DNA of 40,392 nucleotides, taken from positions 1-40,392 of the forward strand of contig JAPEUG010000126.1 of assembly GCA_026025795.1 (NCBI GenBank), read 5' to 3'. A program made the position numbers and the translations under genes. Position 1 is the first letter of the stretch. Each line of letters opens with the position of its first letter. The stretch comes from Thelocarpon superellum. Its lineage: Eukaryota. The notes under the pieces are model-generated. The model ran no database searches. It was not told where the DNA came from and saw only the letters and a list, made by a program, of their open reading frames with translations. Shown here in pieces: positions 13,622-39,585 of this stretch.

Positions 13622-16600
13622 CTAGAAAGGAAGACGATACCGAGCGTCGCGGATCTCATCGCGGATCTCATCTCCCACGCTACTGAGCCGATTCAACCAC
13701 TGTCGTCCGCCGCCGCTGCTGCGGTCGCCGGCTCCAGGAGAGCGAGGGTAGGACTGTTGTCGCCCCGGACCAGTGCCGGGCGACCGCGGATATTGCTGCG
13801 GTTGCGGTTGCTGTCCACCTCCCGTGCCGGGTGCGCGAGGAAATTTCCCTTCGCTGGCGTTCCCATTGCCCGTTCCCCTCCCGGATGGCGAGCGCGTGAA
13901 GTGTCCTCCGTCGCCGTTGCTGTTTCGCGCCGGAGAGGGCAAGTAGGGTCCACCGCCCGACAAACGAGTAGGGGTCTGGGTTTGGGGTGAGGATTGCGTA
14001 AGGCGGCTGTTTCGCCGCGGTGTGGATGGGATCGGTGCGCTTGGTGGCGTGTTGGTCGTTGTGGGCGACGCTTCGTGGGCCGGCGCCTGTGCCTGCGGGG
14101 GTCCGTTGTTCCTCGGCGAGTCGTGCCCTCCCTCTCCCTCTCCCTCTCCCTCTCCTTCCCAATCAACGCTATTCTCATCCTCGTCATCGTATGAATCATC
14201 ATCATCATCTTGGCGATCTTGGAATCGAGCCCCGAGATTTCGCCACAGTCGTCGAACCGCCGTCTCTCGCGGCACGCGAGCCGGAGACCTCTCGTGGCTC
14301 ACCCTGACAGTGTCACGTCCCTCTTCTATGAATCGGGCACGCCGTTGATTGGGCGACGGCCGAACTTCTTCTTCGTCCTCGTCGCTGTCGAGTTCAACGT
14401 CGCGATCGGTCACCGCTGGCACGGCCGTTTCCTGGCGGGCGGGCGTCGTCGGAGTATCCTGCGTCTCGGCGAGAGCCGCGGCGTAGCGGGCAGCGTCGGC
14501 TTGGTTGGCTTCACCGCGAGGGTCATATTCATTCTCCTCCTCCTCGTCTTCGTCCCCTTCAAATTCCGATCGGAGCGGTCGTGGCCGGCGCGCCCAACCC
14601 GTGAGACGTCGCCGGAGTGGCGGCGGACCCGACTCGTCATGCTCTTCATACCACAATGCAGGCACGAGGAGCCGATATGGCATCGTGATACCCGCCGGAT
14701 CTCGTTGGTTCACTTCCGCGTTCAACACAATGTCTAGTCCTTCTTCGAGGTTGATATGTCGCTGTGTCGCCGCCACCGTCTTCTTCTTGCCTTCGATCAG
14801 TTCCGTCGTCGCGTGATGGAAGAGCGACGGGCGTTGCGGGGTCCCCGCACTGGTGGAGCTCCCCACGCTTTGCGCCGGGAAGTACTCGGTGGAATCTGCG
14901 CCGGGCGGCGGCCGTGTTCGGCGCGGAGATCCGTTCAACACTGGCGCGCGACTGCTTGGCTGACCACGATTCGACAGCCTCCGAAGCAAGTTGCCCGGAC
15001 TGACGTCATTACGGTTCATCGACAGAGTCCTCGACAGTCGTTTCGGCGTCGACAGCGGCTCGGGCGGCGGCGATTCCGGCTCGGGCGGCTCGGGCGTCAA
15101 GGGCGGCGTGCCTCCTGGATGATATTCTCGGATGGAACACCAGTTTCGTCGCAGGAGCAGTCGTTGATTGGCCCGAGACTTGCCGTCCACATCATGCGTA
15201 AACAGCGGGATCATGTCTTCGTCCGTCTCCGGATCGAGATGATGAACCCGATTGCGTCGGTTCAAGATATCGCCCATCGCATTGGGAGGAGGGCTGTTGA
15301 CAATGGCCGAGGATATGACATTGGGCATGTACCGGTGGTCCTTGTCCTTGGGGATCCCAAGCTTAGGATTCGAGTAGAATTGACCGATGGCGGCCAGATG
15401 AACGTCACCCCTATCGCATCATGAGCGCCTGCACATACTTCTCGCTCACCACTTGACTTACCCGAGGATCGTGATGCGCACGGACTTGCCGGCGGCCAGC
15501 TCTTGCAGCTCGTGGAGGAACCAATTCCGCTCGGCTTTGTGGCTGCGCGCCGTCCAGTGGTCATCCAAGTCGTCCAAGATTTCGATCCCTCCATCGAATC
15601 GATTCAGTAATCCGCCCAGCATGCCTGACTTTCCAAGCGTCTTGAGAGGATCGGCCAATCTCGACGTCAGACTGCTCCAGTCAGCTGTGGACCCACACGC
15701 CCGGGATGCTAGCACCTACATGTTCTCCAACCACACGAGTCGCGGGTAAGCGATGGGAATGCCCAAGAGCACGATCAGATGCTTCGTCTCCCCCTTGGTG
15801 ATCTCATGCTTGCATCGCTCAAAGACGCGATCGTAAGTCTCTTGACTGAGCACCTCGTCTCGCTGTTGCGCATCAGCCATACCATTTCGTACACCCAATG
15901 GGATCGACGCATCCACATACCATCCGCTCCGTACGGCAGTCCAATCCAAGAAAGGCCACGCTTCGTCCCAAGGAGACGAACACACTGCGACTGCGCTCTT
16001 TAATGTACGGCCCCAGGGAGTCGCCTAGCAGCCAGCTGGGCTCCTCAGTCTCCGTCTCGGCTGGAAGGCTCTGATGCTGGAACAGCATGTAATATTTGAA
16101 CGCCACCGCACCGAGACCTGAGAAGACGGGAGACGCCATGAAATGATCCGGGTAGGAGCCGAAGCCATCGATGATGTCGTGATCGTCCCAGATGTTGACC
16201 ATGGGGATCTGCGCAATGGCCAGGCCGAACAAGCCCTGGGAGAACCACATGGAGTATCGCTCGAGGTAGAAGGTGTCGAGCTCTTGCCGCATGGCTGGCG
16301 AGAAGGGGGTCGAGTATTTTTGCGATGGGTTCTTGATGTTGAGCCAATCCTGGAAGAAGCTGGTCTGCTTCACCACCGCGTCATTGTAGATCTGGTCGCC
16401 CCCTCCAATCATGACGTGGAAGGGCCTGGTCTGGTGCGCGTTGAGCACGTCCCGCCACATCGGGTCAGGACCGCTGAATTGGTCGGGATCCACGGTTAGA
16501 CTGAACCCATTGCAGGTGTGGAACATGATGTTCATCGTCTCCCCACGTGCCGGCACCCAGAAGCCCATGGCCGGGCCGCGGTTGATCCGGTAGCCGATGC

Positions 16601-19256
16601 GACATTGCCGATCACTCAGAACAACCTCCAGGTTGAAGCGCCAAAAGGTGACGCCACGTTCGGCCAGGAGGCGTACCGCTTGCACCTCGCTGAAGTCGCC
16701 CACCATTTCGCCGTCGGGCTTGCGGATCCGGTTGTTGGGGTAGGTGGCCTCTCCACCGGCTCCTGATTCGCTTCCGGCTGGACCGTCGTCCTGCGCTGGG
16801 CTTCGGACATCTTCATACAGACCGTTGTCATCCTCGATCCTCGACAGGTCTTTGGACTCGGGCAAGTGGTCGACGGGCTTGACGTAGATGGTCTGACCAG
16901 TCCGCGACAGCAAGGGAAGACCCGCGATCGGATCGATATACTCCGGAGCGAGTTGACCCCCTTCACCATCCACATGTGCTGGTGGCGGAGGTAATAGATC
17001 CACCGGCTGTAGGAAGAGTCGCAGCGTCGGCGGGACGTCGTAGAGCGAATCCGAATCTTCCGTCACGATCATGACGCTGCCTCGCCACACCTCACGCTCA
17101 CTGGCAGCCGGAGGCTCCAGACCGTCCGAGGTGGCATGCGCTTGGGCGTGCTCGACGCGGATCCCCCGGTATCGGAGCAACGGCCCACATTTCAGATACA
17201 ACGGAGGTTCAAAAGTGGTAGGGGCTGCTGCAGGGCGGACGCGGATGGACCGCATCGTAGTCGTTAGCCCCTCGTTCCCCAGCGGTGAGCAGACGTGTAG
17301 GGGATGAAAAATATCGTGCTCGTGAATCTTCGAGCAGTCGTACAAATATGGCGAGCTAGGAATACGCAAGGTCGAACGGCCGGCGACAGATGGCATCGTG
17401 TTCCGATGTCCACGGCGTGAGAAAAGCTTGATCCTCCACGGCATCCGAGGATGATCTGGGCCTATCTTGAGCCCAAGGTAGGGCCGAGCACGAAAAACCA
17501 CATCACTCATCCTCCGCCTGTGATCCTGGTGATCGTCCGATATATCCCCAACAAGAGGCAAAGAGATTGGAGAGCTCATACCGTTTTCGTCTACCTCGTG
17601 GTCGTCTGGGTTGGCGTCGCTGGGTAAGGTATACTGTCGAGTCGTGTTGGCGCCGCCACTCTCCCACCATGCCGAGTCATCGGTACGGGCCGTCCCGCGG
17701 CGTTCGAGGCGAGGAAGATCCGCCACATTTACCTGTGCCGTCGTGGCGGTTCGCCACTCGTCGAGGGGCGGAGGTGGGGGCGGGAGGACACGCTCCGAGG
17801 TACCTTGCACCGTCGCCGGCCGAGGCATCGGCCGTTCACGAGCACCGGGCGGCGGGCCGGCCGTGACCTCTTCACGGGCTGCCCGACCCCCTCCGAAACG
17901 TGGGCCGAGCGCATGCATGATGCGGCTTCCAAGGCCGAGTGGGACTTCACGTGAATCATCTGTCTCCGAGTCAAGCTCCGACATCGGCTCGTCTTGTTGC
18001 ACCCGCGGCCCTCCTGCGCCTGCTGCAGACGATCGGACGACCTGATCTGTGTGTGTCGGCTGCCGTGTCACCGGGACGGCGGTGGAGGGGCTGTGGGCCC
18101 CGAGGGTGGCGTCGCTCGCCGCTCGGTCGAAGGCATCGGAGGCTTCGGCCAGGCCTCCAGGAGTCGGAAGGTCATCCAGACTGGGGTCATGCTGGTCTTG
18201 ATAGATGAAGCCGTGTCCGCTGGCGTCAGGCGACAACTGCCGGGGCGCCGCGGGTGGCTGTGTGTCCAGCGTGGTGGTGCGCTGTATCCGATCTTTCTGG
18301 CGCTGACTGAGACCCCGGATCAGTCCAGCGTCGGCCAGCGCGGCCGCCGTGGCCGCTGCCGCTGCAGGCTCCGCGACGCTTCTCGACGTGGACGGGGCGG
18401 CAGTGTCTGCGGTCCGACGGGTCGATTTGCGGCTCCCGCGACCTGCCTTGGCCTCGCGCGCGAGCATCTCGGCCTCCTCCATCTGCGCCCGTTTCTCTTC
18501 CTTGGTGATGTCTTGCAGCGTCAATTCCAGCTTCTGCAGCGGCGATCGATCGGGCGCCCATTCCCGACGCTGTGGGGAGGTGAGCGGACTCGGGCCGGCA
18601 GCACGGCGCGCGGTCGAGCCGGGTCCAGAGGCGGTGATGGGCGTGCCCTGGTTCTTCGATAAAGTTACCAGCCGGGCCTGCTGAGGGATAGCCGTCTCCG
18701 GGGGGGATTCGCTGGCGGCCTTGACCGCTACCACGGGTGTCTGAATGGCCGGCGGGGCTCGCGCGTTCTTCACATTTGGCAGCTGTTCCCGTTCGCGACG
18801 GCTCGTCGATCCGCCTCCATTGGTCCTCGACGGCGTCGACGCGGTCGCGGCCGCGGCCCGACGACGCGGTGTGGTGACGTTGGCCTGCGATTCCCGATAG
18901 GAGACGGGCGGGAGCGGGGGCGGAGGCTCGTGGGCCACGGGAGGAGGATCGGAGAGCAGAGGGCTGTCCGGAATGGGACGGTCTTGGAGCTGGCTGTCGC
19001 GTTGTCTTCGCGACTCGGTCCTGCCCGATCTGGACCGCTGACCCGACCCCGCCGTGGTATAGGCCGGGGGGTCTGGAGCGGGAGCGGCGCGTCCGGCAAA
19101 AGAGGTCGAAGTAGGAGAGTCCTCGGGACTGATGGGGGAGACGGAGGGATCTCGTGCAGCATCGGCAGATCCACGCTGTTGTTGCCGGCTGTGGTAGCTG
19201 GTGGGATGGTGTGGCACGGATGGGGGAGCTTGCTGAGGCTCGTCGGGATGGTCCAT
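13622..19256 (-). CDS. Large PhoD-like metallophosphatase-domain protein with long disordered N- and C-terminal regions; complement(join(13622..15410,15462..15671,15720..15862,15921..19256)), about 1825 aa (about 1707 aa if 17228-17581 is spliced)
   Basis: Metal-ligand motifs FHTCNGFS, MIGGGDQIYND, NIWDDHDIIDGFGS, LDCRTER and ILGGDVH; three canonical short introns link the ORFs; ATG at 19256 (MDHPDEPQQ); no signal peptide. Confidence 0.85.
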
Positions 19257-20672
19257 GACGATGCTGTCGTGGGCCGCAGGCGCCGAAGTCGGCGGAGGCA
19301 AGACGAATGCTCCGATGGATAGAGGTTCACGGGCCGTGATGCAGGTCAAGCATGTTGACGGCTTCTGCAGATCCACGTGTTGCAATTCAGCCCAAGCCTA
19401 AGCAGCACGGTATCTGATACGTCAAGGCGGCGCCGCGGGCGGGTGACGGTAGAGGGGGAATGAATTCACTGCACGGTGGGCAGAGGCCAGGCCCAGTGAC
19501 GTGGTTTCGATATGGGTACTCGTACACGGGGAAGCACCGCTGGGAACAGAAGCATTGGAGTATCTCGAGGGCTCAAGGCTCGAGTTGTTTTGAATCGGAG
19601 CTCCATGGCAGCATGGGCGAGCAGCAGAGCAGCTGCCGTATTGGGCGAGCGACCGAGCCGATGCGACCTGAAATCCAGTGGCTGGCGGGCACCACCAACG
19701 TGGGACGACTGAGAAGAAAGCTTAACGCGCACCGACACCTCCAAGGAAGAGTGGGCCAGCAATAATGGCACCGGTAAGTGTGCGACCAGGATCTTGGTCC
19801 GAGTACGGCGACCAAGCGCGTATGCATCGCTCGTCACGAGTATTCCAGGGCTCGAAGGTGCTGTGGTATAGCCGCACGACGAGACAGAAGCGCACGTAAG
19901 ACCAACTCTCGTTCTCCGCACTGTGGTCTGAGAGCGACATCCGAACGCTTCCAGCCTTTCGCCACCACGAGGCGACCAGAGGCAGCGGTCGCTGAGGACG
20001 AGGCCGAGGCCGAGGATTCGTGCCGCACCGGACCTATGGTACGAATGGTGACTAAGAGTGGCAGATGGCATTCGGATGCGTTTGCGAGTCACGGACACGC
20101 ACACGTCGCACCATACCACAGGTCGACTTTGTAGTCTTTCTACCTACGGTGCACGATGCGTCGACCCTCAGTTCTGCTCCTCAGGAAGCCGTATAAGTGC
20201 TGGGCCGCGCATGGCGCCGAGTGTTTCACCGGAGTCCCCACCCGTTCGCTCGGCAGCTGACGCAACCACTCGTCAGTGGTCGCCATAGTAGAATTTTTGA
20301 GGCGACTGACGCTTCGGCAAGTGCCGGTGTCGATGAAATAGAAGACAACTGTTTGGTAGCATCGGAGGGTTTCAGGCCAATGCAACGGGGCCGATTCATC
20401 GCCATCGGCACGGGACTGCACAGACCAACACCCTTTCATAGATTGAGCCTGTCGACCTTGAAGCAACGTCGCCTTGTACGTGCGCAGCTGTCACCTTGTA
20501 TTCTTCTTCGACCTTCGCTTCGAGGCCCCAACCCACGAAACCAGGGTCGCCGACCTCACGCCGTCCTCTGCGACTCCAGGCCCCGGCCAACGTCCCCTCG
20601 ATCTTGTGTCGCGAGTGATCGGCCGAGTCCGCCCACGCTGATGACGTTCGGCACGTCGTCCGACCAACAGTG

Positions 20673-23267
20673 ATGCGTTGGTCTATTGTCTTGGCCGTCT
20701 GGAGCGGTCTCAGGGCCCATGGTGCGGCCCAGTTGCTGCGTCGTTCTTACGAGACTCACGACTACTACGCCGTCCACCTGGACGCGGCAAGCTCGCCATC
20801 GCATCTTGCCGACACCTTGGGCTTGACCCATGACGGACCCCTGGGCGAACTGCCAGACCACCACATCTTCTCCGCCCCCCGCCATGACGACGACGTGGTC
20901 GACAACGCCCTGCGCGAGCTCCGTCGGCGGCGGGGGAAACGCGACGTGGGCCAGGCGGCACACGTCTTGGACGCCGTGCTCTTCTCGCAGAAGCAGAAGT
21001 TGAAGCCACGCCTGGAGAAGAGGGGCCCGTTCATCGCGCCGCGGGATCCGGCGCCCCCGCCCCTCGGCACGGGTCCTCCCCGGGCCGCGCCGTCGGGCAA
21101 TGACGCAGGCATCCTTGAACAATACGAGATTGCCCAGGCGCTCGAGATCCACGACCCCATCTTCACCGAGCAGTGGCATCTCTTCAATCCCCTCCAGCGT
21201 GGAGAGGACGTCAACGTCACGGGGCTCTGGAAGCAGGGCATCACCGGGCACAATGCCACCGTCGCCATCGTCGACGACGGCCTGGACATGGATAGCGACG
21301 ATCTGAAGGACAACTACTTTGCCGAAGGCTCCTATGACTTCAACGACCAGACACTCGAGCCGCGGCCACGCCTGGCCGAGGATCGACATGGCACTCGCTG
21401 CGCCGGCGAGATCGCTGCCGTCAAAAACAACGTGTGCGGCGTTGGGGTGGCGTGGGACTCCAAGGTCGCCGGGGTGCGCATCTTGTCCAAGAAGATCTCC
21501 GACGCCGACGAGGCGGTGGCGATGAACTACGCCTACCAGAAGAATCAGATCTACTCGTGTTCGTGGGGCCCGCCCGACGACGGCCAAGCCATGGACGCCC
21601 CTGGCATTCTGATCAAGAAGGCGATGGTCAATGCAGTGCAGAACGGACGGGGCGGCAAGGGGTCCATCTACGTCTTCGCGTCTGGCAACGGCGCGGGGAA
21701 TGACGATAACTGCAATTTCGACGGCTATACCAACAGCATCTACAGCATCACCGTCGGCGCCGTCGACCGCAAGGGCCTACATCCTTACTACTCGGAGAAA
21801 TGCTGCGCCCAGCTCGTCGTGACCTACAGCAGCGGAAGCGGTGACGCTATTCACACGACCGACGTGGGCGAGAACCAGTGCTACTCGAATCATGGCGGCA
21901 CCTCGGCCGCGGCGCCGCTGGCCGCGGGGATCTTCGCCTTGGTCCTGTCGGTCCGGCCTGACTTGAGCTGGCGTGACCTTCAGTACCTGACCATGCAAAC
22001 CGCGGTCCCCTTCAACGACGACGACGGGGAGTGGCAGACGACGACGATCGGTAAGAGGTTCAGCCACAAGTTTGGGTACGGCAAACTCGATGCCTACGCC
22101 ATCGTCGAGGCGGCCAAGGACTTCAGATCCGTGAAGCCACAGGCGTGGTACAAGTCGCCGTGGATGCACATCAAGCAGGAGATTCCCGTGGGCGACATGG
22201 GGCTGGCCAGCACGCTCGAGGTTACCCAGGAAGATCTCACCAAGGCCAACCTGGCGCGACTCGAGCATATCACCGTGACGATGAACGTGGAGCACGGCAA
22301 GCGGGGCGACGTGAGCGTGGAGCTCCGGAGCCCCAACAATGTCGTCAGCCACCTTAGCGCGACGCGACGCAACGACCAAAGCACCTACGGCTACGAGGAC
22401 TGGACCTTTATGAGCGTCGTGCACTGGTACGTTCCCTGGGGCCGCGGGCGCGACGCATGATCAGTGACTGACTGGGATGGTAGGGGCGAGAGTGGCCTGG
22501 GCACGTGGACCGTCATCGTCAAAGACACGGTGCAAGACGGCTTCCGTGGGAATTTTACGGACTGGCGCATCACGCTCTGGGGCGAATGCATCGACGAGTC
22601 CAAGGCCACGCTGTTGCCGATGCCGACTCTCTCCGATGACGACGATCATGAGACGATGCCGGGCTCGGCGACGACGACCATCATCGGGCTCGTGCCGACG
22701 TCAACGGCCAGCTTGCCGTCGATCCCGACCGACCACATTGACCGGCCTGTCAACGAGAAGCCGGGGGCACCGCAAGACGAGATGGTGCCGACGTCGGCGA
22801 CGTCGGCGACGCCGTCGGCAAGCGCAGAGCCGCCGTCCTCGTCGGCGTCGGACCACTTCCTGCCGTCCTTCTTCCCGACCTTTGGCGTGTCGAAGCGGAC
22901 GCAGATCTGGATCTATGGCGCCCTCACCATCATCGTCTTGTTCTGCGTTGGCCTGGGCGCCTACTTCTACCTGGCGCGGCGCAAACGGCTGCGGAACAAT
23001 CCGCGGGACAACTACGAATTCGAGATGCTCGCCGACGCCGAGGACCGCGAGGGTATGTTGGGTGGCGTGGGGGGTGCGCGGGCTAAGCGGCGCGCGGGCG
23101 AGCTCTACGACGCCTTTGGGGGCGAGAGCGACGAGGAGCTCTTCAGTGACGAGGAGAAGGAGGACGCGGACGCGGACGAGGATGAGGAGATCTACCGTGA
23201 CGCGGAGGGAGGACCCTCCCCGCCCATCGAGGTGGCGGACGAGAAAGCACCCGGACTTCGTCGGTAG
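20673..23267 (+). CDS. KEX2: Kexin proprotein convertase (S8B); join(20673..22426,22484..23267), about 845 aa
   Basis: Signal peptide, prodomain ending LEKR, catalytic motifs IVDDGLD / HGTRCAGEI / HGGTSAAAP, oxyanion FASGNG, P domain, S/T-rich stalk, TM helix, cytosolic tail with YEFEM and an acidic cluster. Confidence 0.97.
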
Positions 23268-24111
23268 AAGCGAGGAGCTGCGGGCTATGCATATCATTGG
23301 ACGGGCGCCGGGGTGGGCTTGCACTGTTGGCCATTGGGACTCGTCTCACGTCACTTTGGGGTGAGGATGCATGGACGGGTAGTTCTGTACAATAGCTCCT
23401 GGCCCGGTCGACAGGACCTGTGTCTGTACATAATTTAGCAGTCTGCTGTTTAGCATTACGTTGCTTCTGAGACACAGCGCTCACAGATCTCTGCACGCGG
23501 GAGGTTATGGGCCGGGGCTGGTGTGGTAACCGACGGCACTCCCACTCTATTTGTCATTCCGTGGTCGCCCAGCATGCGAGCCTGGGACTGAATGAGCTCA
23601 TCAGTGGCGGGGTGGCTCCCTCTATATCCATCCAGATCACATGACAAAGCACTCCGGGTCCGCGTCCGGCACTCGTTCTGTACGCGGGGAGCAATCCTTA
23701 GGCCCCCGGTTGTGAGCACCTCAAGTCAAATCATGACCTGTCCCAATTCCTTCGCGTTGTAAGCTAATCAGCATCTCGGGCGCGGCCATCTGTAGACGCA
23801 TTGACCGTGACGCCGCATGTGCCCAGCGGCAGCCATCGCTCGGTCAGACTGACCGGGACATAACCATCCGTAGCATCACTCGCGGGGGTTTCTGAAGCAG
23901 TCTTCTGCCTCGGCCACCGCCATCGCCAGGCACAGTGTTTTCCTCCATCTTCCGTCGTACGCCGCCGACGTCGCGGTGTTACGCCTGGTCCGTCCCACTC
24001 GCCGCCGCCGCCGTCCTACACCAGCGATCGTCCACCTCGGCGGCGTCGACGCCGTTGACTTCGTCTGCGTCGCACCTACCATCTCTGCTGTCCTTCCGGC
24101 CGCAACGAGCG

Positions 24112-25217
24112 ATGCATAGCAAGGTGGTCATCATCGGCTCCGGCCCCGCGGCCCACACCGCGGCGGTGTACCTGTCACGAGCCGAACTACAACCGGTCTT
24201 GTACGAGGGGCTGCTAGCCAACGGCATCGCCGCCGGAGGGCAGCTTACCACGACGACCGACGTCGAGAACTACCCAGGCTTCCCGAAAGGCATTGGCGGA
24301 CCCGAGCTGATGGTGCGTATGCTCAGTCGCGTCGAAGGCCTCACGCTGACGGGAGAGGACGATAGGACCAATTCCGTGCCCAGTCGGAGCGCTTTGGCAC
24401 GAAGATCATCACCGAGACGGTGTCCAAAGTCGATCTCTCCCGACGGCCGTTCAAGTACTGGATCGAATCGGGTGAGGACCAACCCGCTCATACCACCGAC
24501 ACGCTCATCATCGCCACGGGAGCCTCGGCCCGCCGGTTACACCTCAAGGGCGAGGAAACGTACTGGCAGAACGGCGTCAGCGCGTGCGCGGTGTGCGACG
24601 GCGCCGTGCCCATCTTCCGGAAGAAGCCGTTGGTGGTCATCGGCGGGGGCGATTCGGCCGCGGAGGAGGCCATGTTCTTGACCAAGTACGGCAGCCACGT
24701 CACGGTGCTGGTGCGCAAGGACAAACTGCGCGCGTCCAAGACGATGGCCAAGCGATTACTGGGCAATTCCAAAGTCACGGTCAAGTACGGCACGGTGGCA
24801 ACGGAGATCAAGGGCGACGCCACGGGACTCATGAGCCACCTGACGCTAAAGAACCTGGCCACGGGCGAGGAGACGGACGTGGAAGCCAACGGCCTCTTCT
24901 ACGCCGTGGGCCACGATCCGGCCACGCAGCTGTTCCGCGGACAGGTCGACGCGGACGAGGACGGATACATCCTGACGAAGCCGGGCACCAGCTACACCAA
25001 CGTCAAGGGCGTCTTTGCCGCGGGCGACGTGCAGGACAAGCGCTACCGACAGGCCATCACCAGCGCCGGCTCGGGTTGCATTGCCGCGCTCGAAGCGGAG
25101 CGATTCCTCGCCGAAGAGGAGGACGGCGTGGCGAATGAGTTGGAGCTGGAAGGCAAGGCGTCCAAGTCGCCAGAGAACGATGCGGCGCCCCAGTACCGAT
25201 CGAATCCGCTATTGTAA
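24112..25217 (+). CDS. TRR1: Thioredoxin reductase (low-Mr type); join(24112..24312,24366..25217), 350 aa; possible GTG-initiated longer isoform from 23935
   Basis: [34 protein letters not shown], redox [18 protein letters not shown] and [19 protein letters not shown]; intron 24313-24365. Confidence 0.97.
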
Positions 25218-25333
25218 GAGGGTGAAGTGAGGAGCATCCGATTGAAGCGGCGGAGCCATGCGATGGTAGTGAAATATAGACACCAGAAGTTTATACCAGA
25301 ATCCACATCCCCAAACGCGACGAAATAGCAGCA

Positions 25334-26212
25334 TCAAAGGCCGCCGTCATCACAACATTCAGGTCTAAAATCATCCGGATCGGTATCGCTGCACGAGCAA
25401 TGAAACGATGGGCCTAGTGCGCCCTCACTCGCGCCGCCGCCGCGCTCACCACGACGCATTCGACGGCGCGGAAACTTCCAAAACGCCGACGCGGCAGCGC
25501 CGCAGCTCTTGGGACCAAGGAAGTAGACGGGTTTCCGGTCCAGGCCGACGCTGGCTCGTACAGGTTGCCGGCACGTACATCCTGCTCGGCCGCGGTGGTG
25601 TCCGCAGTCTGCTCGCGTGCGGCAGCTTCGCTGGGCGGAGCATTGGCCCTGTACGGTGTTGGTCTGGGTGTTGGCGTTGTTGTTGGTGGAAGGGGGCGGG
25701 CGCGCCCATGGAAGCGCATACGATACCGTGCCCAGTGAATCCGGAGCCGATACGTTCGCGGTCGCGTCCACGATGGTATTTCCGTTTGTATCTGTGTTTG
25801 TGGGTTGCGTGGGGTCCCGGCCGGCGTTGAGCTCGTCGAGCAGCCAGGTCTGGAACTGTCTCCGCATGGCAGCGCGGGCGTCGGCGGCCGCCTGGCCATC
25901 GGTGCAGGTGCAGTTGTGGCAGATGGGCGGGCCTTGCGCGCCAGCTCCCGCGTTCCATGCTCCCTCGCCCGCGCACGGCTTCTGCACTTGCTGCCGGCAG
26001 TATTTGGCCGTGTCTCCTTCGTACTCGATTGCCAGCTGGATGTCCACTGTCCGCAGCTCGTCGGGACAAGCTAGGCCAAAGGCGCGTAATGGGATGCGTG
26101 GGACGAGATCGTGCGAGGGCGGGTTGGGCGTTGCTAGCGCGTGGGCGAGGGGAGGGAGAGAGACGGGGAGGAGGGTGATTGGTAGGAGGTGGAGGAGGCC
26201 GAGGGGTCGCAT
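25334..26212 (-). CDS. Secreted cysteine-rich hypothetical protein (292 aa, 16 Cys)
   Basis: Single ATG-initiated ORF with a hydrophobic signal peptide (MRPLGLLHLLPITLLPVSLPPLAHA), pro-segment ending LVPR, two Cys clusters separated by an N/T-rich linker, polybasic RRRMRR before the terminal CSC...CC. Confidence 0.7.
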   Translation of the reverse strand: MRPLGLLHLLPITLLPVSLPPLAHALATPNPPSHDLVPRIPLRAFGLACPDELRTVDIQLAIEYEGDTAKYCRQQVQKPCAGEGAWNAGAGAQGPPICHNCTCTDGQAAADARAAMRRQFQTWLLDELNAGRDPTQPTNTDTNGNTIVDATANVSAPDSLGTVSYALPWARPPPSTNNNANTQTNTVQGQCSAQRSCRTRADCGHHRGRAGCTCRQPVRASVGLDRKPVYFLGPKSCGAAASAFWKFPRRRMRRGERGGGASEGALGPSFHCSCSDTDPDDFRPECCDDGGL

Positions 26213-26374
26213 ATTTAGAATCCGTCTTTTTTAGTTGAGCTGGATCTGCATCTCGTTTTCCTTCTCACCACGATTGCACCAGCCCGGATGAGTGTGGTCA
26301 ACGAGAGACGAGGTGAGGTGACATTGGCAAGAGGAAGAAACGAGAGGGAGAGAGAGAAGAACCTTGCATCGAGA

Positions 26375-26415
26375 CAAGGCAGGCAAGGCAGGCAAGGCAG
26401 GCAAGGCAGGCAAGG
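26375..26415. repeat. (CAAGGCAGG)n tandem repeat, about 4.5 copies
   Basis: Direct reading; lies upstream of the Cys-rich gene. Confidence 0.9.
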
Positions 26416-28288
26416 TTGTTCCCCAGGTTTTTAAGAATCTGGGGTATAGCCGCTGCAGCTATACATAAGACACCGGGGACTGTTTCTGGTCGAGGCCTCG
26501 CAATGGGAGCACCACAGTCCGGTAGCGTACGAGGCTACTTGGACCAGACCAGTATGCAGCGCATGTCCACAAGAATGAGGGAGGAAATACAGCGCACGCC
26601 ATGGGGAGGCAGCGTCGCGCCAACTCCAGACGGTGTTCGCACCCTCACCTAGTCCGCCAGCTCATGATCTCCGGGCATCGTGCGCGAATCATGCGCGAGT
26701 CTTGCGCGAGTCGGGCGTGATCGAGAAAGCAAGGCAAGAGGTACGTCGCGATGCGGCCCGGCCGGCTGGCGGCGGCAGATCTCGCTGCAACGAGCTCGGC
26801 CACGAGGGCCGGCCGGGCTGCGAGTGGTAGATTGCGCGCGCATAGGGTTGGCGATCGAGAATGAGAGATCGAGAAGGGAAGGAGGGTGGCGCGATGAGGA
26901 GGATGGATAGACTCCTCCAGACGACTTTAGCCGGGTCTGGGTCTCGGGCGGCTCCATGGCCAACTGTCAGTGTCGCGCCCTGCCTGAAGGCACTCTCATA
27001 CGTCAGTTATTGGCCTGCGAGAGTTTCGCGGCATTCGCTCCCCTTCCTTCGCTTGCGCTTATATCTATGCTACGAGTAGTGGGAAGTGACCCCCCCAAGG
27101 GCCTGTTGTTATTTGCCCCAGCACCCGGCATGCCCAACCCCGCATGCAACGGACCACACACCCTCCCTCCCGCTCCCCGCAATCTTCTGCTCGTGCCATA
27201 ATTGGTCCGCACCTCTCGAACAAGATGTAACAATGCATGGTCTGGCTCGAGATGGCACAAGTCGCTCAGTGTCCGCTACAGCGACATAGGCCCCTGCTCA
27301 AGTATCGCAAGCCTGTCTATCTTCAGAAAGGCACGTTGGACCAAATTCAATGTCAAAGGGGTGCTGTCTGCGTCTTTTCCAAGATCGGGCGTCGCATGCC
27401 CATTCGATTCTTCGGTAGTCTTCGGTTGTCTTGGCCGGATTCTGGAGGATTTCGAATGTCAAGTTCAACTTCATCTCCCTGTAGTCCAGGCTTTGTCTAC
27501 TCGGCTTCTCCTCTGTGCAAGTAGCACGATTCATCTGGCGGGGTCTTACGTTGCGTATTCATGGTGATTGGCTTGGAGGCCGTTTCCTAGAAGAGCTAAT
27601 CGAGACGGCGTACGCTGAGGACCCGATCCTCGGCACAATTCCAGTCACGGCGATTAGGAGCAAGCGCGGCTGCAGTCCGCCGTGTCTGATCAACAGCCAC
27701 GGAAAGCTGCTAAATAGTGACCGGACCCATGAACCGTCCGTCCGTAGTGGAGCGCTGGCAATCTACCTCGGCGTGCAAGATGAATGCATTGTTGGCATTG
27801 TACGCTCTCGTCCTGCCGGAGCGATTGCAGAGAGAGTGTGTGAAGCGGGATTATTCCCTCCGAATCTCCTCCACTGCAGAGCAACGTGGGCGGACGAAAT
27901 CATGTGATGGGCCGCTGCCGGCGGCATCACCTTGGAATCGCCATCCTCACTACAGCAACGGTAGCATCCTTTGGTCCGCTGTGCCGCTACTTACCGTCCC
28001 TTCGTGCCTCCGTATGCCCGTCCCTTCCGTCTTCCGTATGCCCGTCGGCGCCGGCCGCGGCCGCGACGAGCATGGTGTGAATTCTAAATGCTCGATGCCA
28101 CTCTTGCTCCAATGACTAACTCACAGCATGGTACTTGTATAACTCGCCGTCAACAGCTGAGTCGTCAGTTTGTGCTCTTCTGAGGCTACCACAGTTGACC
28201 TCAAAGCAAATCGCCACGGTTCCGTTGATGGTCGTTGCGAGCTCGTCGACTAGTTGATTGATCCGCTTCACCGCCATCGTCGTTTCCC

Positions 28289-32828: not shown

Positions 32829-33301
32829 GTTGTGACAAGTCCGAAGATGACGGCAAGAATCGGAGGTTCAAGGACGTGATTGATGCTACCGGAGCATCGT
32901 CTGCGGAGCCACGCGTGCTCAGCCAACGACATATCCTCGAAACGCATGGCGAATGTTACGACGGGACAACATGATGGGGACGGGATAAGATTAAAGATGG
33001 AGGGGAATGATCCGATAAGCGTAAAGGGAATGGTGGGCAAAGACCGGGATGGAATGACGCGGGGGCCCTTTCAATTCCCAACTACCAAGTGGTAGGACCT
33101 CCGCTAGTGACAGAGGGGAGGTCGGAATCCCGTTACGCTCCGAGCCCCCGCCCCCCCCGACAATCTTCGGTTGAGAGTAGCTTGGCTGCGCTAAACTTGG
33201 CGTTGGCCGGACTTTCTCGCTTTGTGGCTGACTAACCCAACCGCGAACGCGTGCCCAAAGACAAGTGACTACTAAGTAAAGTGCCTGCACAAGGTTCCAA
33301 G

Positions 33302-33391
33302 TGTAGGAATCAGAGCTGAATTGCTAATCTACATGTAGCTGGGATTGTAATAGGGGTGGGCATGTGACTTGGTCACATGTGTGCTCCTACA
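33302..33391 (-). repeat. 3' LTR (90 bp, all CpGs mutated)
   Basis: Matches 39420-39509 at 83 of 90 positions; adjacent to the polypurine tract. Confidence 0.97.
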
Positions 33392-33393
33392 CA

Positions 33394-33404
33394 CTTCCCC
33401 TCCT
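33394..33404 (-). other. Polypurine tract AGGAGGGGAAG
   Basis: Purine run ending 2 nt before the 3' LTR on the minus strand. Confidence 0.85.
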
Positions 33405-33722
33405 AAACTTGTGATATTGAAGTGAATAGCTTCAAAACAGTAGGAAACTAGCATAGAGCCAATAGTGTGGCCTGCCATGCTTGCTAGTATGGTGACACAT
33501 GCCTGTTGTTGTTGTTGTTGTTTACTTACCCACCAACCACTGTGGATTCTCATGATCTTCTGTTTTCTTCCTGCAACCACAATGCCTTGCTGTGTGGTGG
33601 TCCCCCTGTCTGGTGAGGTTGATCTGCACCTACTGTACAGTTGGAACTGACAATAGTAGCTTTGGCCAAAGAGGCTGCTCATCTCACTCCAGCGAATTCT
33701 TGTTGTTTGCACCTAGGCCAAA

Positions 33723-34699
33723 ATGGCCACAACATTTGTCCCTGTTCCATCACGCCTGCAGCAGGTGTCTTGATACTGACTGCAGTAGCTCCTTCTGTTT
33801 GTACAACACCCTGACATGCATCATGATATCACTACTTGTCCTCACAGCTCGCATGTGCGCCTGTGTTCTCATGGTGCTGTTTTGTCATCTGTTGTCAAGT
33901 TGTGTTGTAAGTTGGTCATCTAGGCCATTATTATCTAGGTAGGTGATGCTGTTGATGTCATACACTGCTAACGTTTCTACAGCACCACAGACTGACTGTG
34001 GATCTGGAATGTGACCAATGCCTAGAGAACTGTGGTCTGTTCCTCTGTTGCAAGACAGCTGTCAACTCCTGTGGCCAGCAGATTTGTGGTAGCGCATGTA
34101 GCAACTGCATGTACTAGGATGGTGCTGTACACTGTGTCAACAGTGAGCATTGATCCCATTCCATTCCCCCCCTTCCTTGACTGATTGTGGTAGGCAACTA
34201 GTACATTCCTCCCTGTGCTATCCTGTTGCTGCTGTACTAGCTGCCACCCAACATTGTTCCTCCTCTCTCTGGCCAGTGGCTCCAGTTGTATGTCCCACCC
34301 ATCAACATCAAGGAGGACAATGTCAATAAGCTGTGGGTGTACACCAAGCCATTGCTAGCTATCTGTCACTCCTTTGCTGGAGTTGTTCTCCTGCAGTCAT
34401 CCACAACACCTGTGTCACCTACACCTGGGCCCTGTCACTGCACCTCTGCCATACACCTGCTGTCATCATCCCCCAGGTCACTAGGAACCTCTGTGGCCAG
34501 TTGGCTGTCTGTGGCTAGTTGGCTGTTGTCTTCTCTGTTGTTTGTGCTGCTTGGTGCAGCAGTAGCACCAGCAGAGGCTTGTACAAGCCCCAGTGTAACC
34601 CCTAGGTTAGCTGCAGCACTTGTGGAGCTCTGTGGTGGCACTGTTGCCAAGACCAATGCAGCATATCTTGCATTCCTGCACAAGCAGGAGTTCAGCTAG
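33723..34699 (+). pseudogene. Antisense, intron-containing accessory gene of the retrotransposon encoding a DUF3716-like Cys-rich domain; join(33723..33938,33983..34142,34194..about 34699)
   Basis: CAAAATGGC start; introns 33939-33982 (GTAGGT...GCTAAC...TTTCTACAG) and 34143-34193 (GTGAGC...CTGAT...TAG). Spliced frame reads AIII*HHRLTVDLECDQCLENCGLFLCCK...GSACSNCMY*DGAVHC and continues into ORF 34286-34699. All stops are TGA/TAG, explicable as C-to-T or G-to-A changes. Confidence 0.75.
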
Positions 34700-34719
34700 C
34701 ACTGTTAGTAGATAGTAGT

Positions 34720-37700
34720 CAATTGAAGTTGTATCTTGTTGTAGCATGTTTGTTCCTTGCTGTACATTCCTTGCTGACTAGTCCTCTGCTGTAGTTCTCC
34801 TATTTGTGATCTATACCCCTGTCTTCCTCCTCTGGTGGAATTGTGTTGAATTTGTTGTTATTGGCTGCTATCAGTGCATCCTCTAATTGCTTGCTTCTGT
34901 ACAACTAGGTTGCCCATGCTAGTCAACCCCTAGCATGCAGCATCTTCTAACCCCTGGTGATACAACCTTCAACCCTTGCTTTTCAGAGTTGGTCACTGTT
35001 AATGAGGGTTGCTAGCTATACCCCCTTGGGATCTTCTAGCTCATATATGTTGAATGGGTGTACTTGTCTGATCCTGTAGGGTCCCCACCACTTGGTGTCC
35101 CACTTCTGTGCTATAGCTCTACAGATCAGCACTGGATCTCCCTTTTCAAATGTAATTCCTTTTCTGCTGTTGTCCTACATCTTCTTATTCTTCTCCAATT
35201 GCTCTCTAGTCAACCTCTCTGCTTCTGTACAAAGTGTTTCCAATAGAGGCACAGGGTCCTCTCACTCATTCTCTGTCAGGGGTGTTGGGCCTGCCTGATC
35301 ACCTAGGAGGTGAGGCTCCACACTATAGAGCAGCTTGAAAGGTGACATTGTCATTGTCTTGTGTGTATGTATGTGTGCAGCAAACAGGGCCTGCTTCACA
35401 TAGAGGTCCCAGTTGTGTTGTGGCTGATAGGTGATGTACTTGGACAGCATGCTGCCTAGTATCCTGTTCAGTTGTTCCACTAGTCCATTTGTATGTGGGT
35501 GATATGGTGTAGTTCCTTGATGCTTTGTCTTCATCTGTTGCAGGAATAGAGCTATTGCTGGTGCCTATAGGTTTGGTCCTTGGTCTGTCAGGATCTCTTG
35601 GGGTGCACTATACAGCAGATAGATCTCATTGTAGATGAAGTCTGCTAGTGTCTCTGCATCTGCTTGTGGAACTGCCTTTGCCACTGGCCACCTGGTGGTG
35701 TAGTCGATTGTGGTGATGATCCAGGTGTTTCCCTTGTCTGTATGGGGAAGCTTGCCTATCAGGTCTAGACCCTAGCACTGAAATAGCCTTAGTGCTGTGG
35801 AACCCTACAAGATAGAGGGGTGCAGCTTGTCTGGTTGATCTTGTGGCTTTGCTGCTAGCTGGCACTCTTTGCAGTAGGATGTATAGTGTTGTATGTCTCT
35901 TCTCCATGTGGGCCACCATCCCCTAGTCCTCAGGAGGCTCTCCAACAGGAGTCTCCTGATGTGCCTGTAGTCATGATGCAGGTGATCCAATAGACTTGTC
36001 TGCTCCTATAGCTTGACATATGGAATCCAGGGCTCCTCTAGGTTGTTCTAGTGTTCCATATGTCTGTCCTCATCCAATCGAAGCTTGTCCTTGTGCTTCT
36101 TGAGCTCTTTGTTGATTGTCTTGTCTGGTGACTTTGTGCCTGTCTTGAGGAACTCTGGCATGTAGTCTACCCATTCCATTGTGTTGATTGCAGCTGTATA
36201 CTGGTAATCACTTCTTCTTGATAGTGTGTCTGTCACTATCATCTCACTTCTAGGCTTGTGTATGATATCAAGGTTGTACTCCTAGAACTCTGAAAGCCAT
36301 CTTGCTAGTTGATCTGAGGGGTTCTTTGTTATCTTCAGGTATTGCAGGCTCCTGTGGTCTGTCTGTATGATTGTCTTGTGTCTATTCTGGATGTAGACTC
36401 TCCATTTCCTCAACACCATCTTGATAGCTAGAAGCTTGTGCTCATGAGTTGTGTAGTTCTGTTCTGTGCTGGTAAATGCTTTGCTGTCAAACACTACTGG
36501 TCATTTGGTTTGTACATCTGTGTTCTGCAGCAGAACAGCACCCTAGGCATAGTCTGAGGCATCTGTCTTGATGATGAATAGCTTGTTGTAGTCTGGTTGA
36601 GCTAGGACAATGTCACTAGCTATCTTGCTCTTGAGCTTGTCAAATGCTGCTTTGCATGATGCAGTCCAATGTATGGGTTGATGCTGTATGTTCTGAGCCC
36701 CATGGATCAAGGCATAGAGTAGAGCTGCAAGGATAGCAAAGTCCTTGATAAATCATCAATAATAGAAGCAGAGTCCTAGGAACATGTGTGCTTTGTGTGT
36801 TGTCCTAAGGGGTGGCCATTCCTTGATTGTACAGAGCTTATCGTCCTCCATACACACCTCCCCCCCTCCTAGAATGTGCCTAATGAACTCAATTGATTTG
36901 ACAAGGAATGTGCACTTTGATAGCTTGGCCCATAGGCCATGTAGCTGGAGCTGTTCAAAGACCAATTGTATGTGTGTCAGGTGTGATGTATGATTGTCAC
37001 TGTATATGAGGATATTGTCAATGTAGATGATGACAAACTTGTCAATCATGTCTCTGAACAGGTTGTTCATCATCTCCTAGAAGGATCCAGGTGTGTTGGT
37101 GAGACCAAATGGCATCATGCACCACTTGTACTTTCCTGTATGTGTTGTGAAAGCTGTCTTATATCAATCCACCTCTACAATGTTGACTTGCCAGTATCCT
37201 GCCAATAGGTCTATCTTGCTGAAGATCCTAGCCTTTCCCACAAAATCAAGGCAGTCCTGTGTCTAAGGAAGTGGATAACTGTTCTGTACAGTGACTGTGT
37301 TGATAGCTTGATAGTTGATACACATCCTCTATTCCTTGTTCTTCTTTTTGACAAATAGAATAGGTGCTCCCCATAGTGATGAGCTTGGGTGTATAAGCTC
37401 ATGTTCCAGTAGATACTGGATCTGTTGATTCTGCTCATCCAGTTGCTCCTTGGATAAGGGGTATGGATTCTTGCAGATAGGGGTAGCTGTCCCTGTATCT
37501 ATTCAGTGATTGATGTCTGAGGGTGGCAGTGCTCCCTTAGGAAGCTCTGTATGAAACTGTTACAGGAGAGGGCCTAGCTTATAGTCAAGTTCAGGGTCTC
37601 CTGTCAAATGGTCTGTTTGGTGCTTCCATTGAGCACTTCTGTCCTCCTTGTTGTTGTGTTGCAGCTGTATGAAGTGTAGGCTGAACACTGTCTCACTGTC

Positions 37701-38330
37701 CAGCCAGTGCTACAGCTCCCTATAGCTAGCCAGGTTGAGGTGCCACAGCTTTGGATTGTCGATTGTCCTGTGTTGTTCTTCCAATCTGTGTAGCATGTGG
37801 GTTGCTCCATCCTTTTGTACAATGACACCACTGTTATCATAGTCCTAGATTGCTTGATATTGATGATGGAAGTCCTGTCCTAGGATGGCATCTGCTTCTG
37901 TATCCACTACAATGAAATCTGTGTCATCCTCGAATGCTCTATAGGTCCATTGGCAGTGTACAAATCCCTTGATATCAAGTGTCTGCATGTTCTTGTTTCC
38001 TCCAAGATCCATGTGTCCTTCTGCAGGTGTCACTGCTAATTCCAACTTGTTCACTAGTCTCCAGGATATGAAGTGATGTGTAGCTCCACTATCCACTAGG
38101 AATTGTATAGTCCTCCTGTACATCCTTCTGTCAATCCAGACACTTGAGGATTCTAGTGATATCACTCTCAATCTTGCTGATATATAGTCTATTCCTCTAG
38201 GCTATACAAGTGTCCTTGTAGCCCTATAGGGTTCCTACACCCCTATCACGCTATTCACAGCTAGTGTCTTCAGCTCAATAGATGGTGTATGTTCTGGCCT
38301 GTATGATTCTGTTAAGTTGTACAGGCCTGT
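34720..38330 (-). pseudogene. pol (protease, reverse transcriptase, RNase H, integrase); one frame with many transition-derived stops; ends approximate
   Basis: FLVDSGATHHFIS (PR), MPFGLTNTP and IYIDNILIYS (RT, YIDD mutated to YIDN), TDASDYA*GAVL and TDHRSLQYL (RH), H...H...CKEC, GLDLIG, ILTDQG, PYHPHTNGLVE and WWGPYRI (INT). All fragments share one frame. Confidence 0.93.
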
Positions 38331-39349
38331 CTTTTCCCTAGGCAGTCTCTTAAGATATGCCCTGTCTTTTGGCATGTCCAGCACATCACTGGACATAGTG
38401 TTCCACCTGTTCCACCACATCTGTAACCCCTTTCTTGTGTTCTATGACATTTGTACAGTTGTGACTGCATGGTGTTGATAGCTGTTGGTTGTGGTAGATA
38501 GCTGACTAGTTGAGGAACCCTCTAGAAGTGGGGTCTATTCTTCTCCTCTACATGTTCAGCCTTGATCATGGCCTCTCTCAGGTTCTGTGGCCTTGCTCCC
38601 TTGATGTCAAATTTGGTGTTTCTTGGGAGTGTCTGAGTGTATGCTGTCATTGCTGCATCTTTGTTGACCTTCTTGCTACAACTGAGCCACATGTTGTAGA
38701 AGTTGTTGTTGAAGTCTGAGATTGATCCATTCTAGAATTGCATGGAATGGAGCTTGTCATATGCTTTCTCCTCACTGTTGTGATCACAGAACTTCTCAAG
38801 AGCCAGCCTCTTGAAATCCTGCCACATATCACCTAGTCCCTTGACTTGTTGAATCACCTGCTGGGTATACCAGCTATGTGCTGGGCCCTTCAGGTATGAC
38901 AAGGCAAAGCTTGTACACTTCTCAACTAGGATCTCTGTCATGTGTAGGTAGACATCCATAGTCTCAAGCCATTCCCAAATTGTTGCACTATTGTTCATCT
39001 TGCTATCAAACTTCTCTAGAGCTGCCATTTGTGCCAGTGGTGGTTGATATGTTGATCGAACTGGGGTAATCGCTACTGTATGCTGCAATTCTGCACTTGC
39101 TGTGTCCAATGACACATCACAATCCTCTGCTAGGCTCTGTGCTAGGGAGTCTTGCTAGAGGTCATTTGGTGGGCCTAGAGGCTGTCAGTGATCAATCGAG
39201 GTGTCCAGGTCCATTGTACACTTGCTGGGTTCACCAGCCATAGTCCCTGGGGGCCCTTGCAGGACAGGGTCTAGGATATCAACTGTGCTCTGTTGCCTAG
39301 AGCTGCTTCTTGTTATATGAGGTTGCGACTTGGTTGTACAGTTGCTCAT
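38312..39349 (-). pseudogene. gag with retrotransposon capsid region and CCHC zinc knuckle (about 345 codons)
   Basis: ACC-ATG at 39349; WEWLETMDVYL...FALSYLKGPAHSWY capsid signature; CWTCQKTGHILRDC knuckle near 38342-38383 in the same frame; TAA at 38312-38314. Confidence 0.85.
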
Positions 39350-39410
39350 GGTCAGGAGCTCTGATCCTAGGCTCCTAGAGGACTTGATCTTTGATATAAC
39401 CTATCATGTT

Positions 39411-39417
39411 GCTACCA
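39411..39417 (-). other. Primer-binding site TGGTAGC (complementary to a tRNA 3' end GCUACCA, initiator-Met-like)
   Basis: Begins 2 nt inside the 5' LTR boundary on the minus strand. Confidence 0.7.
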
Positions 39418-39419
39418 GA

Positions 39420-39509
39420 TGTAGGAATCAGAGCTGAATTGCTAATCTACGCGTAGCCGGGATTGTAATAGGGGTGGGCACGTGACTTGGTCACGTGCGC
39501 GCTCCTACA
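39420..39509 (-). repeat. 5' LTR (90 bp, retains 7 CpGs)
   Basis: Direct repeat of 33302-33391; adjacent to the PBS and gag. Confidence 0.97.
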
Positions 39510-39585
39510 CAAGTGGCTTTCAATTATATTTAACTCGTCCCAAGCTTCGACGCGGTTTGGCCGTCTTTGTTCTGCTCTTCCCCTT

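Follow-up and report, generated by a model that had tools for sequence, protein, structure and literature searches.

The 40,392-nt stretch of DNA analysed here (the window; positions 1 to 40,392 of contig JAPEUG010000126.1, assembly GCA_026025795.1, from Thelocarpon superellum) carries on its minus strand a single dead copy of a non-chromoviral Ty3/Gypsy retrotransposon at 33302-39509. A process resembling repeat-induced point mutation (RIP) has converted nearly all CpG and some CpA of the element by transitions. A spacer of ~1.4 kb (33405-34799) separates the pol stop from the polypurine tract, and the chances are about evenly balanced that this spacer is the wreck of an ancestral gene for a cysteine (Cys)-cluster protein read from the opposite strand, a reading built on sequence features and on the comparison of copies and related elements. 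An earlier note on this DNA had placed there an antisense gene of three exons and two introns with a product of the DUF3716 type; in that exact form the gene is unlikely.

The element shows long terminal repeats (LTRs) bounded by TG and CA, a target-site duplication, a primer-binding site, a polypurine tract, and the order gag, protease, reverse transcriptase (RT), RNase H and integrase, as is typical of Ty3/Gypsy. The target-site duplication CAAG, read from the sequence, stands at 33298-33301 on the left and 39510-39513 on the right. Both LTRs are 90 nt long and lie on the minus strand; the 3' LTR (33302-33391, TGTAGGA...TCCTACA) is a direct repeat of the 5' LTR (39420-39509) and has every CpG mutated, while the 5' LTR retains seven CpGs. 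The primer-binding site begins with TGGTAGC on the sense strand (39411-39417, minus strand, read from the sequence), which we take to be a match to initiator tRNA-Met. The gag region (38312-39154, minus strand) has pieces of Retrotrans_gag, Ty3_capsid and zf-CCHC in a frame other than that of pol, and pol (34800-38201, minus strand; protease, RT, RNase H and integrase) occupies a single frame with 25 internal stops and no frameshift. The sense-strand sequence AGGAGGGGAAG (33394-33404, minus strand) is taken as the polypurine tract from its position next to the LTR. The closest pol relatives share 43-49% identity with the window element, and the rest of the 40-kb window holds neither another copy nor a fragment of the element. 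The intact 5' LTR also contains a perfect palindrome, CACGTGAC-TTG-GTCACGTG, with two E-box-like CACGTG sequences, which is a candidate factor-binding site.

The damage to the element is of one kind. The observed/expected ratio of CpG is 0.07 in the element and 1.08 in its flanks, with TpG at 1.59 and CpA at 1.47 in the element, and the last 7 kb of the window have a G+C content of 0.44-0.49 compared with ~0.60 elsewhere. All eight differences between the two LTRs are changes of CpG to TpG or CpA in the 3' LTR, the 5' LTR having escaped hypermutation. Pol keeps 376 of the 538 residues at columns conserved in the nine closest relatives, and its residue changes are of the transition type (V to I, R to H or Q, G to R, D to N, and W or R to stop), from which it follows that C-to-T changes dominate on the plus strand. 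The hypermutation is thus strand-biased, with CpG as the main target and a smaller CpA part that includes many TAG stops. Damage by transitions only, confined to the repeat and with loss of the target dinucleotide, is RIP-like; classic Neurospora RIP targets CpA, unlike the mainly CpG target of this element. The earlier note had reverted such changes to read the core of its frame. A frame opened in this way is no test of a gene, since in a CpG or CpA context a single transition separates each stop codon from a sense codon, and any stop can thus be reverted.

Other copies of the element were surveyed in DNA run X1 through 465 contig pieces on 33250-35250 with a likeness of at least 80%; runs X2 and X3 gave no pieces matching the stretch. 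The copies differ by 271 transitions and 20 transversions, and single-site readings refer to the 40 best supported of these 291 differing places. At least eight places have CA in the window copy and TG in other copies, or TG here and CA there, as is left when a single CpG decays independently in different copies; the copies were therefore separately mutated from a CpG-bearing master. The contig depth is ~480-2300 in the spacer, ~1200-1960 in integrase and 20,000-27,000 in the LTR, and single contig pieces have depths of ~120-150, which suggests ~6-12 internal copies plus many solo LTRs, contig depth being a poor copy count. Since the depth of the spacer is like that of integrase, the spacer belongs to the family, and the DNA segment with the antisense open reading frames (ORFs) is present at family depth as well. 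The possibility left in the earlier note, that the segment is a private nested insertion of this copy, is ruled out by a spacer common to all copies. The depth of the 90-nt LTR is ~20 times that of the internal region and suggests either that solo LTRs are very numerous or that other repeats have this LTR too.

The same survey bears on the end of pol. The gap of about 1.3 kb that the earlier note saw between integrase and the 3' LTR is real as a long spacer, but its measure changes, because pol ends not at 35016 but at the TAG at 34800-34802, which leaves ~1.4 kb. About 70 residues past the TAG at 35016 still match the C-termini of relatives, which end at the same point as the true pol stop. 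The TAG at 35016 is private to some copies; at position 35018, G accounts for 1491 of 1623 depth, so that other copies lack this stop. The observation that integrase has no chromodomain is upheld: PF00385 has no match in the pieces of pol scanned, outside of which lies the read-through tail 34800-35015, and none is listed for the 16 closest relatives. The chromodomain at the integrase C-terminus that marks chromoviruses is accordingly not seen, and the C-terminus of pol aligns to the ends of relatives for which no chromodomain is listed. A third sense-strand ORF in the spacer was considered and rejected, as the minus-strand ORFs there (110, 106 and 86 aa) are in different frames and have no Pfam match.

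On the plus strand of the spacer, the stretch 33405-33722, which includes a (TGT)6 microsatellite at 33504-33522, would hold any antisense promoter and 5' untranslated region. The ATG at 33723 stands in CCAAAATGGCC as the earlier note had read it. Exon 1 of that note (33723-33938, plus strand) is doubtful and has five in-frame stops, and 33556-33942 is open for 128 codons in another frame. Intron-like segment 1 (33939-33982, plus strand) is 44 nt long and reads GTAGGT...CTAAC...CAG; it is followed by exon 2 (33983-34142, plus strand), which holds a six-Cys core. Intron-like segment 2 (34143-34193, plus strand; GTGAGC...TAG) is 51 nt long, a multiple of three, and is a hotspot of indels among copies. 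Exon 3 (34194-34699, plus strand) contains a 152-codon open frame at 34241-34699, and its first terminal TAG is at 34697-34699. An in-frame 18-nt tandem duplication (2.1 copies, 34490-34526) inside this ORF repeats SVASWL. The sequences and coordinates of the two introns are thus as described, whereas their signal sets occur at chance frequency. Likewise, the three exons do join to 894 nt in one frame, but this frame is not open; it has eight internal stops (six TAG and two TGA) in the 293 codons before the terminal TAG. The tail-to-tail arrangement with pol holds, as the antisense frame ends at 34699 and the pol stop is at 34800. Position and strand fit an antisense ORF in the interval from the pol stop to the polypurine tract, in a frame with eight internal stops.

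Several features of the spacer are concordant with a coding past, each weak on its own: ORF length, a Cys motif, composition and the distribution of indels. The plus-strand ORFs of 152 and 128 aa are longer than all 34 plus-strand ORFs found antisense to gag-pol, of which the longest has 82 aa; in Markov simulations the largest gives P=0.08 and the second P=0.024. Exon 1 of the earlier note does not share its frame with the 128-aa ORF. The 3-base periodicity of codon-position composition gives a chi-square P of 0.016 for exon 2 and 0.06 for the 152-aa ORF; the corresponding values are ~1e-7 to 1e-10 for pol, 0.28 for gag and 0.71 for the whole spacer. As for indels, a 7-nt deletion at 33739 inside exon 1 has 162 of 581 depth (28%), intron-like segment 2 has a 5-nt deletion at 34158 (283/980) and an AC insertion at 34191 (147/961), and a further 7-nt deletion at 34707 lies just beyond the exon-3 stop. 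All four of these small indels inside the element fall outside exons 2 and 3, two of them in the 51-nt 'intron 2', and exon 2 has no indel of at least 10% share among the run X1 copies. One contig skips 90 nt in exon 1 (33819-33908). The exon structure is the weakest part of the model, above all exon 1 and the start codon. One stop in exon 1, at 33936, is copy-specific, as this position is C in 839 of 1088 depth to give CAG; the open alternative frame and the 7-nt deletion contradict the exon.

The Cys motif lies in what would be the best-preserved part of the gene. At 34010-34135 the plus strand reads C-x2-C-x8-C-x16-C-x2-C-x8-C with one TAG inside. This pattern occurs once in the spacer and not at all in 4613 decoy codons (simulated P=0.10). 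The sole Pfam match of the plus-strand reading of the spacer is the fungal family DUF3716 (PF12511) at 34004-34135, with 14.4 bits and E 0.037, or 13.8 bits with the stop as X; the alignment places 44 residues on profile positions 13-56 of 59 without a gap. True domains of the same copy also score below their cut-offs, namely rve with 27.8 against 32.6 bits and Retrotrans_gag with 22.2 against 24.1, and hypermutation may account for the shortfall of DUF3716 in the same way as for gag and pol. The consensus spacing of Zn2Cys6 clusters is C-x2-C-x6-C-x5-12-C-x2-C-x6-8-C. The spacing in the window (x2, x8, x16, x2, x8) departs from that of PF00172, and no Zn_clus match is found in the window motif by the Pfam scan. 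An AlphaFold2 model of the 53-aa ORF alone has a mean predicted local distance difference test score (pLDDT) of 61.7 (39-49 in the other models), which is too poor for fold searching.

Homologues were sought with protein queries made from the plus-strand reading with stops as X. No homologue of the 152-aa ORF appears in Pfam, PDB, the Atlas or the protein collections searched, the ESM Atlas has no usable match to the 53-aa or the 152-aa ORF, and a comparison of the 53-aa ORF with longer proteins yields no candidate. Two phmmer matches among 1.84 billion representatives were rejected as artefacts, being repeat proteins matched in seven stretches, as were two matches among PDB sequences (E 0.55 and 1). 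A single-protein scan of viral contigs found nothing. The scan of viral contigs with the pol alignment returned mostly 7-8 kb records in which only RT and RNase H were matched, and these were set aside as caulimovirus-like plant viruses. The same alignment recovered 79 Gypsy loci from metagenome contigs, more distant than the closest pol proteins, and the locus closest to the window pol is L002 at 37.7%. Over these 79 loci, tblastn of the plus-strand reading and regular expressions for the Cys motif found nothing like the window motif.

The metagenomic loci do contain antisense genes of another kind. In eight of the 79, a homologous antisense ORF (family A3) stands directly behind pol, or ahead of the LTR and gag in permuted contigs. 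The nine ORFs, all on the minus strand, are L030:2839-3336, L042:5377-5952, L049:5608-6126, L056:272-862, L058:683-1330, L059:173-727 and 6626-7171, L072:1311-1829, and L073:4586-5119. They are intact and intron-less, have 173-215 aa, and share an invariant Met and six invariant Cys with a spacing of x2, x6, x8-9, x2 and x6-7, the cluster starting about 25 residues after the Met. Pfam Zn_clus matches four of the nine members (best E 0.014), and eight of 21 weak matches of the A3 profile to PDB are Zn2Cys6 proteins, including Gal4, Lac9, Pho7 and Leu3. The AlphaFold2 model of A3 (mean pLDDT 67.9) places two short helices at the CxxC pairs, and a helix of 65 residues follows the cluster; among the Foldseek matches listed, 18 of 22 are Zn2Cys6 DNA-binding domains, all non-significant (E 0.6-7). 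Taken together, profile and model point to a Gal4-like Zn2Cys6 protein with a coiled coil. The ratio of nonsynonymous to synonymous substitution (dN/dS) is 0.10, 0.07 and 0.11 among L072, L073 and L049, and 0.22 between the two L059 copies; the A3 antisense gene is under purifying selection.

The A3 gene and the window spacer are alike in the antisense orientation, the tail-to-tail arrangement with pol, the proximity of the start to the polypurine tract and LTR, and the N-terminal six-Cys cluster. They are unlike in that A3 is intact, intron-less and selected, has a long helix and belongs to another pol clade, whereas the Cys spacing of the window differs. The pol of L030, the one A3 element checked, has a chromodomain. 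In L030 the chromodomain-bearing pol frame is open for 224 codons (2631-3302, plus strand) and overlaps nearly the whole antisense ORF. In five of the eight contigs checked (L030, L056, L059, L072 and L073), 126-193 nt are repeated at both ends with a spacing of 6.1-6.6 kb, and each of these contigs looks like a single element unit, with just one LTR, assembled in circular permutation.

Against a former gene in the spacer weigh several points, and the window copy is too damaged for the antisense gene to be proven. The stop density of the spliced frame is only mildly low, at 8 in 293 codons compared with 59 in 1385 codons of the spacer plus-strand frames, and the exons had been picked to avoid stops. 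Exon 1 is contradicted by the open alternative frame and by the 7-nt deletion in 28% of depth. Intron-like signal sets number three in the spacer where 2.06 are expected (P(>=2)=0.53), and nine in 6 kb where 8.4 are expected. The DUF3716 pattern, which the earlier note had recognised by eye and proposed for a Pfam profile check, did not stand up to it: the match lies below the Pfam gathering cut-off of 22 bits, so that formal membership in the family is lacking, and three of 34 decoy ORFs have equal or better E values (DUF7138 0.0098, zf-ChsH2 0.024 and Rost 0.038). The six-Cys motif exists, but Cys-richness, claimed for the product as a whole, is generic to the plus-strand frames here, which have 8.1% Cys overall and up to 16-18% in decoy ORFs. 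Arg codons of the form CGY decay to the Cys codons TGY, which makes this richness largely a by-product of decay; with C-to-T changes dominant on the plus strand, any of the six Cys could be a former Arg. A word-indexed search at near lengths gave 2110 candidates and none at E<=0.01, and the nearest locus with context, L002, has no downstream Cys-cluster ORF. The A3 family is distant from the window element: a pol tree of 63 sequences, read without support values and leaving out the carriers L072 and L058 as they have no long single match, puts the A3 elements in one clade far from that of the window; hhalign of the window motif against A3 gives a probability of 0.4%; and the A3 family hidden Markov model (HMM) finds nothing on the window at E<=10.

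Much of this would be expected if the spacer were non-coding, a long 3' untranslated or regulatory region in which the ORFs, introns, motif and DUF3716 match arise by chance on a hypermutated strand rich in T and TG and poor in A. In the plus strand A makes up 20%, with the Cys codon content given above, decoys match Pfam as well, intron-like sets are at chance frequency, the ORF and motif statistics reach just P=0.02-0.10 each after several looks, the searches returned no homologue, and 3-base periodicity does not extend over the whole spacer. This explanation is a serious possibility, although short of probable. It has to set down to coincidence that one 700-nt stretch of a single strand combines the two longest ORFs with the sole six-Cys pattern and a coding-like composition, and that the DUF3716 match is to a fungal family over nearly its full length, whereas the seven other chance-level matches are to short parts of families, which we take not to be fungus-specific. 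Moreover, 1.4 kb kept in all copies needs a reason, and other Gypsy elements keep a selected antisense gene at this very spot.

A gene may also have been there in a form other than the one drawn, with a single exon or a different splicing, and its Cys cluster may be a divergent Gal4-type Zn2Cys6 rather than DUF3716. Such a gene would resemble the intron-less A3 family with its Met, ~25 residues and Cys cluster; CDQC...ENxG of the window resembles CDKCFxENRP of L072 and L073 over 12 columns, the unspliced exon-2 frame also gives a run ending in QHH just ahead of the motif, and of the five upstream stops in this frame four are TGA, as would be left by the decay of CGA. On the other hand, the window spacing (x8, x16, x8) fits neither Zn2Cys6 nor A3, the hhalign and HMM comparisons with A3 are negative as stated, and no coiled-coil-like stretch follows the motif, which leaves this variant rather improbable. 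Finally, the element could have picked up part of a host DUF3716 gene as a passenger that was never expressed or selected as a component of the element. In favour of this, only ~45 residues resemble a known domain and the 152-aa part matches nothing. The segment has full family depth, however, and so was carried through many copying rounds, and the 40-kb window has no further copy of it; both points are compatible with a passenger, which is nonetheless very improbable.

If the spacer is the wreck of an antisense Cys-cluster gene, the 1.4 kb would be the remains of an accessory gene whose best-preserved part, 34004-34135, encoded a small six-Cys, probably zinc-binding, DUF3716-like domain. Antisense transcription would begin close to the 3' LTR and run tail-to-tail towards pol, to finish ~100 nt short of its stop. 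Introns in this orientation could outlast retrotransposition since splicing of the sense genomic RNA does not remove them. The protein might act in the nucleus as a DNA-binding factor, either on the LTR of the element itself or on the choice of target.

An antisense ORF between pol and the 3' LTR is already known in kind (aORF-3R, brtn). Boty-like elements with the antisense gene brtn are reportedly the subject of Zhao et al. 2011, Virology 417:248. According to the available excerpts of several reports, Boty-like Gypsy elements of Botrytis cinerea and Sclerotinia have brtn between pol and the 3' LTR (PMC8365987, PMC7264820, PMC4227169, PMC5987419). These elements and that of the window are alike as fungal Ty3/Gypsy elements with an extra opposite-strand gene in the same interval; brtn is compared here by position only, and Boty has a chromodomain in the excerpt that covers it (PMC4227169), whereas the window element has none. 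A3 could be identical with the brtn family already published or distinct from it. A Monilinia transcript is described, in the excerpt at hand, as resembling both a truncated Pol and BRTN (PMC5987419), which fits a tail-to-tail overlap like that in L030. In plants, the LTR retrotransposons Grande, RIRE2, Retand and PvRetro13 have antisense ORFs of unknown function between pol and the 3' LTR, according to a review that gives Boty with brtn as the fungal example (PMC7264820, excerpt). Their ORFs share place and orientation with that of the window; they belong to plant lineages and encode unrelated proteins, with no Cys-cluster domain mentioned in the excerpt.

For DUF3716 itself, the partial texts available report two genes, REP9-1 and REP9-2, inside the Zymoseptoria DNA transposon REP9 (PMC8232023), a Fusarium protein PSC58 that is called a DUF3716 protein and is orthologous to NCU05718 (PMC10776026), and binding of Neurospora NCU05718 to double-stranded TTAGGG repeats (PMC4650311). 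The likeness to the window lies in a short Cys-rich fungal domain, in an accessory gene of a mobile element for REP9, and in DNA binding for NCU05718; in contrast, REP9 is a class II (IS3EU-type) transposon, and the DUF3716 match of the window is below the cut-off and at decoy level. A full-text literature search for DUF3716 found no paper on retrotransposons, and no paper in the literature searched joins 'binuclear cluster', 'LTR retrotransposon' and 'antisense'. An antisense gene of the DUF3716 type, with introns and in a fungal Gypsy element that is not a chromovirus, would be a new version.

The genes that flank the element are ordinary eukaryotic ones, including adenylate kinase, a kexin-like protease, a sorting nexin and a GMC oxidoreductase. 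At 13622-19397 on the minus strand, two long ORFs of 598 and 1174 aa each match a PhoD-related phosphatase and are probably exons of a single large host gene.

Tentatively, separate fungal Gypsy lineages may each have acquired an antisense small zinc-cluster gene, of the DUF3716 type with introns in the window family and of the Gal4 type in the metagenomic clade, so that the elements bring their own transcription or targeting factor and DUF3716 serves as a transposon-borne DNA-binding domain of both class I and class II; this wider picture is possible rather than probable. If true, the window family would represent a fungal LTR retrotransposon with its own antisense DNA-binding regulator, the introns of which are kept as the sense RNA never splices them. 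It would offer a handle on how such elements control their expression, choose their targets or evade silencing, and the orphan domain DUF3716 would gain a biological setting in mobile elements of both classes. The intact, selected, Gal4-like antisense gene of the metagenomic Gypsy clade makes the general idea sound and testable at the bench, independently of the window.

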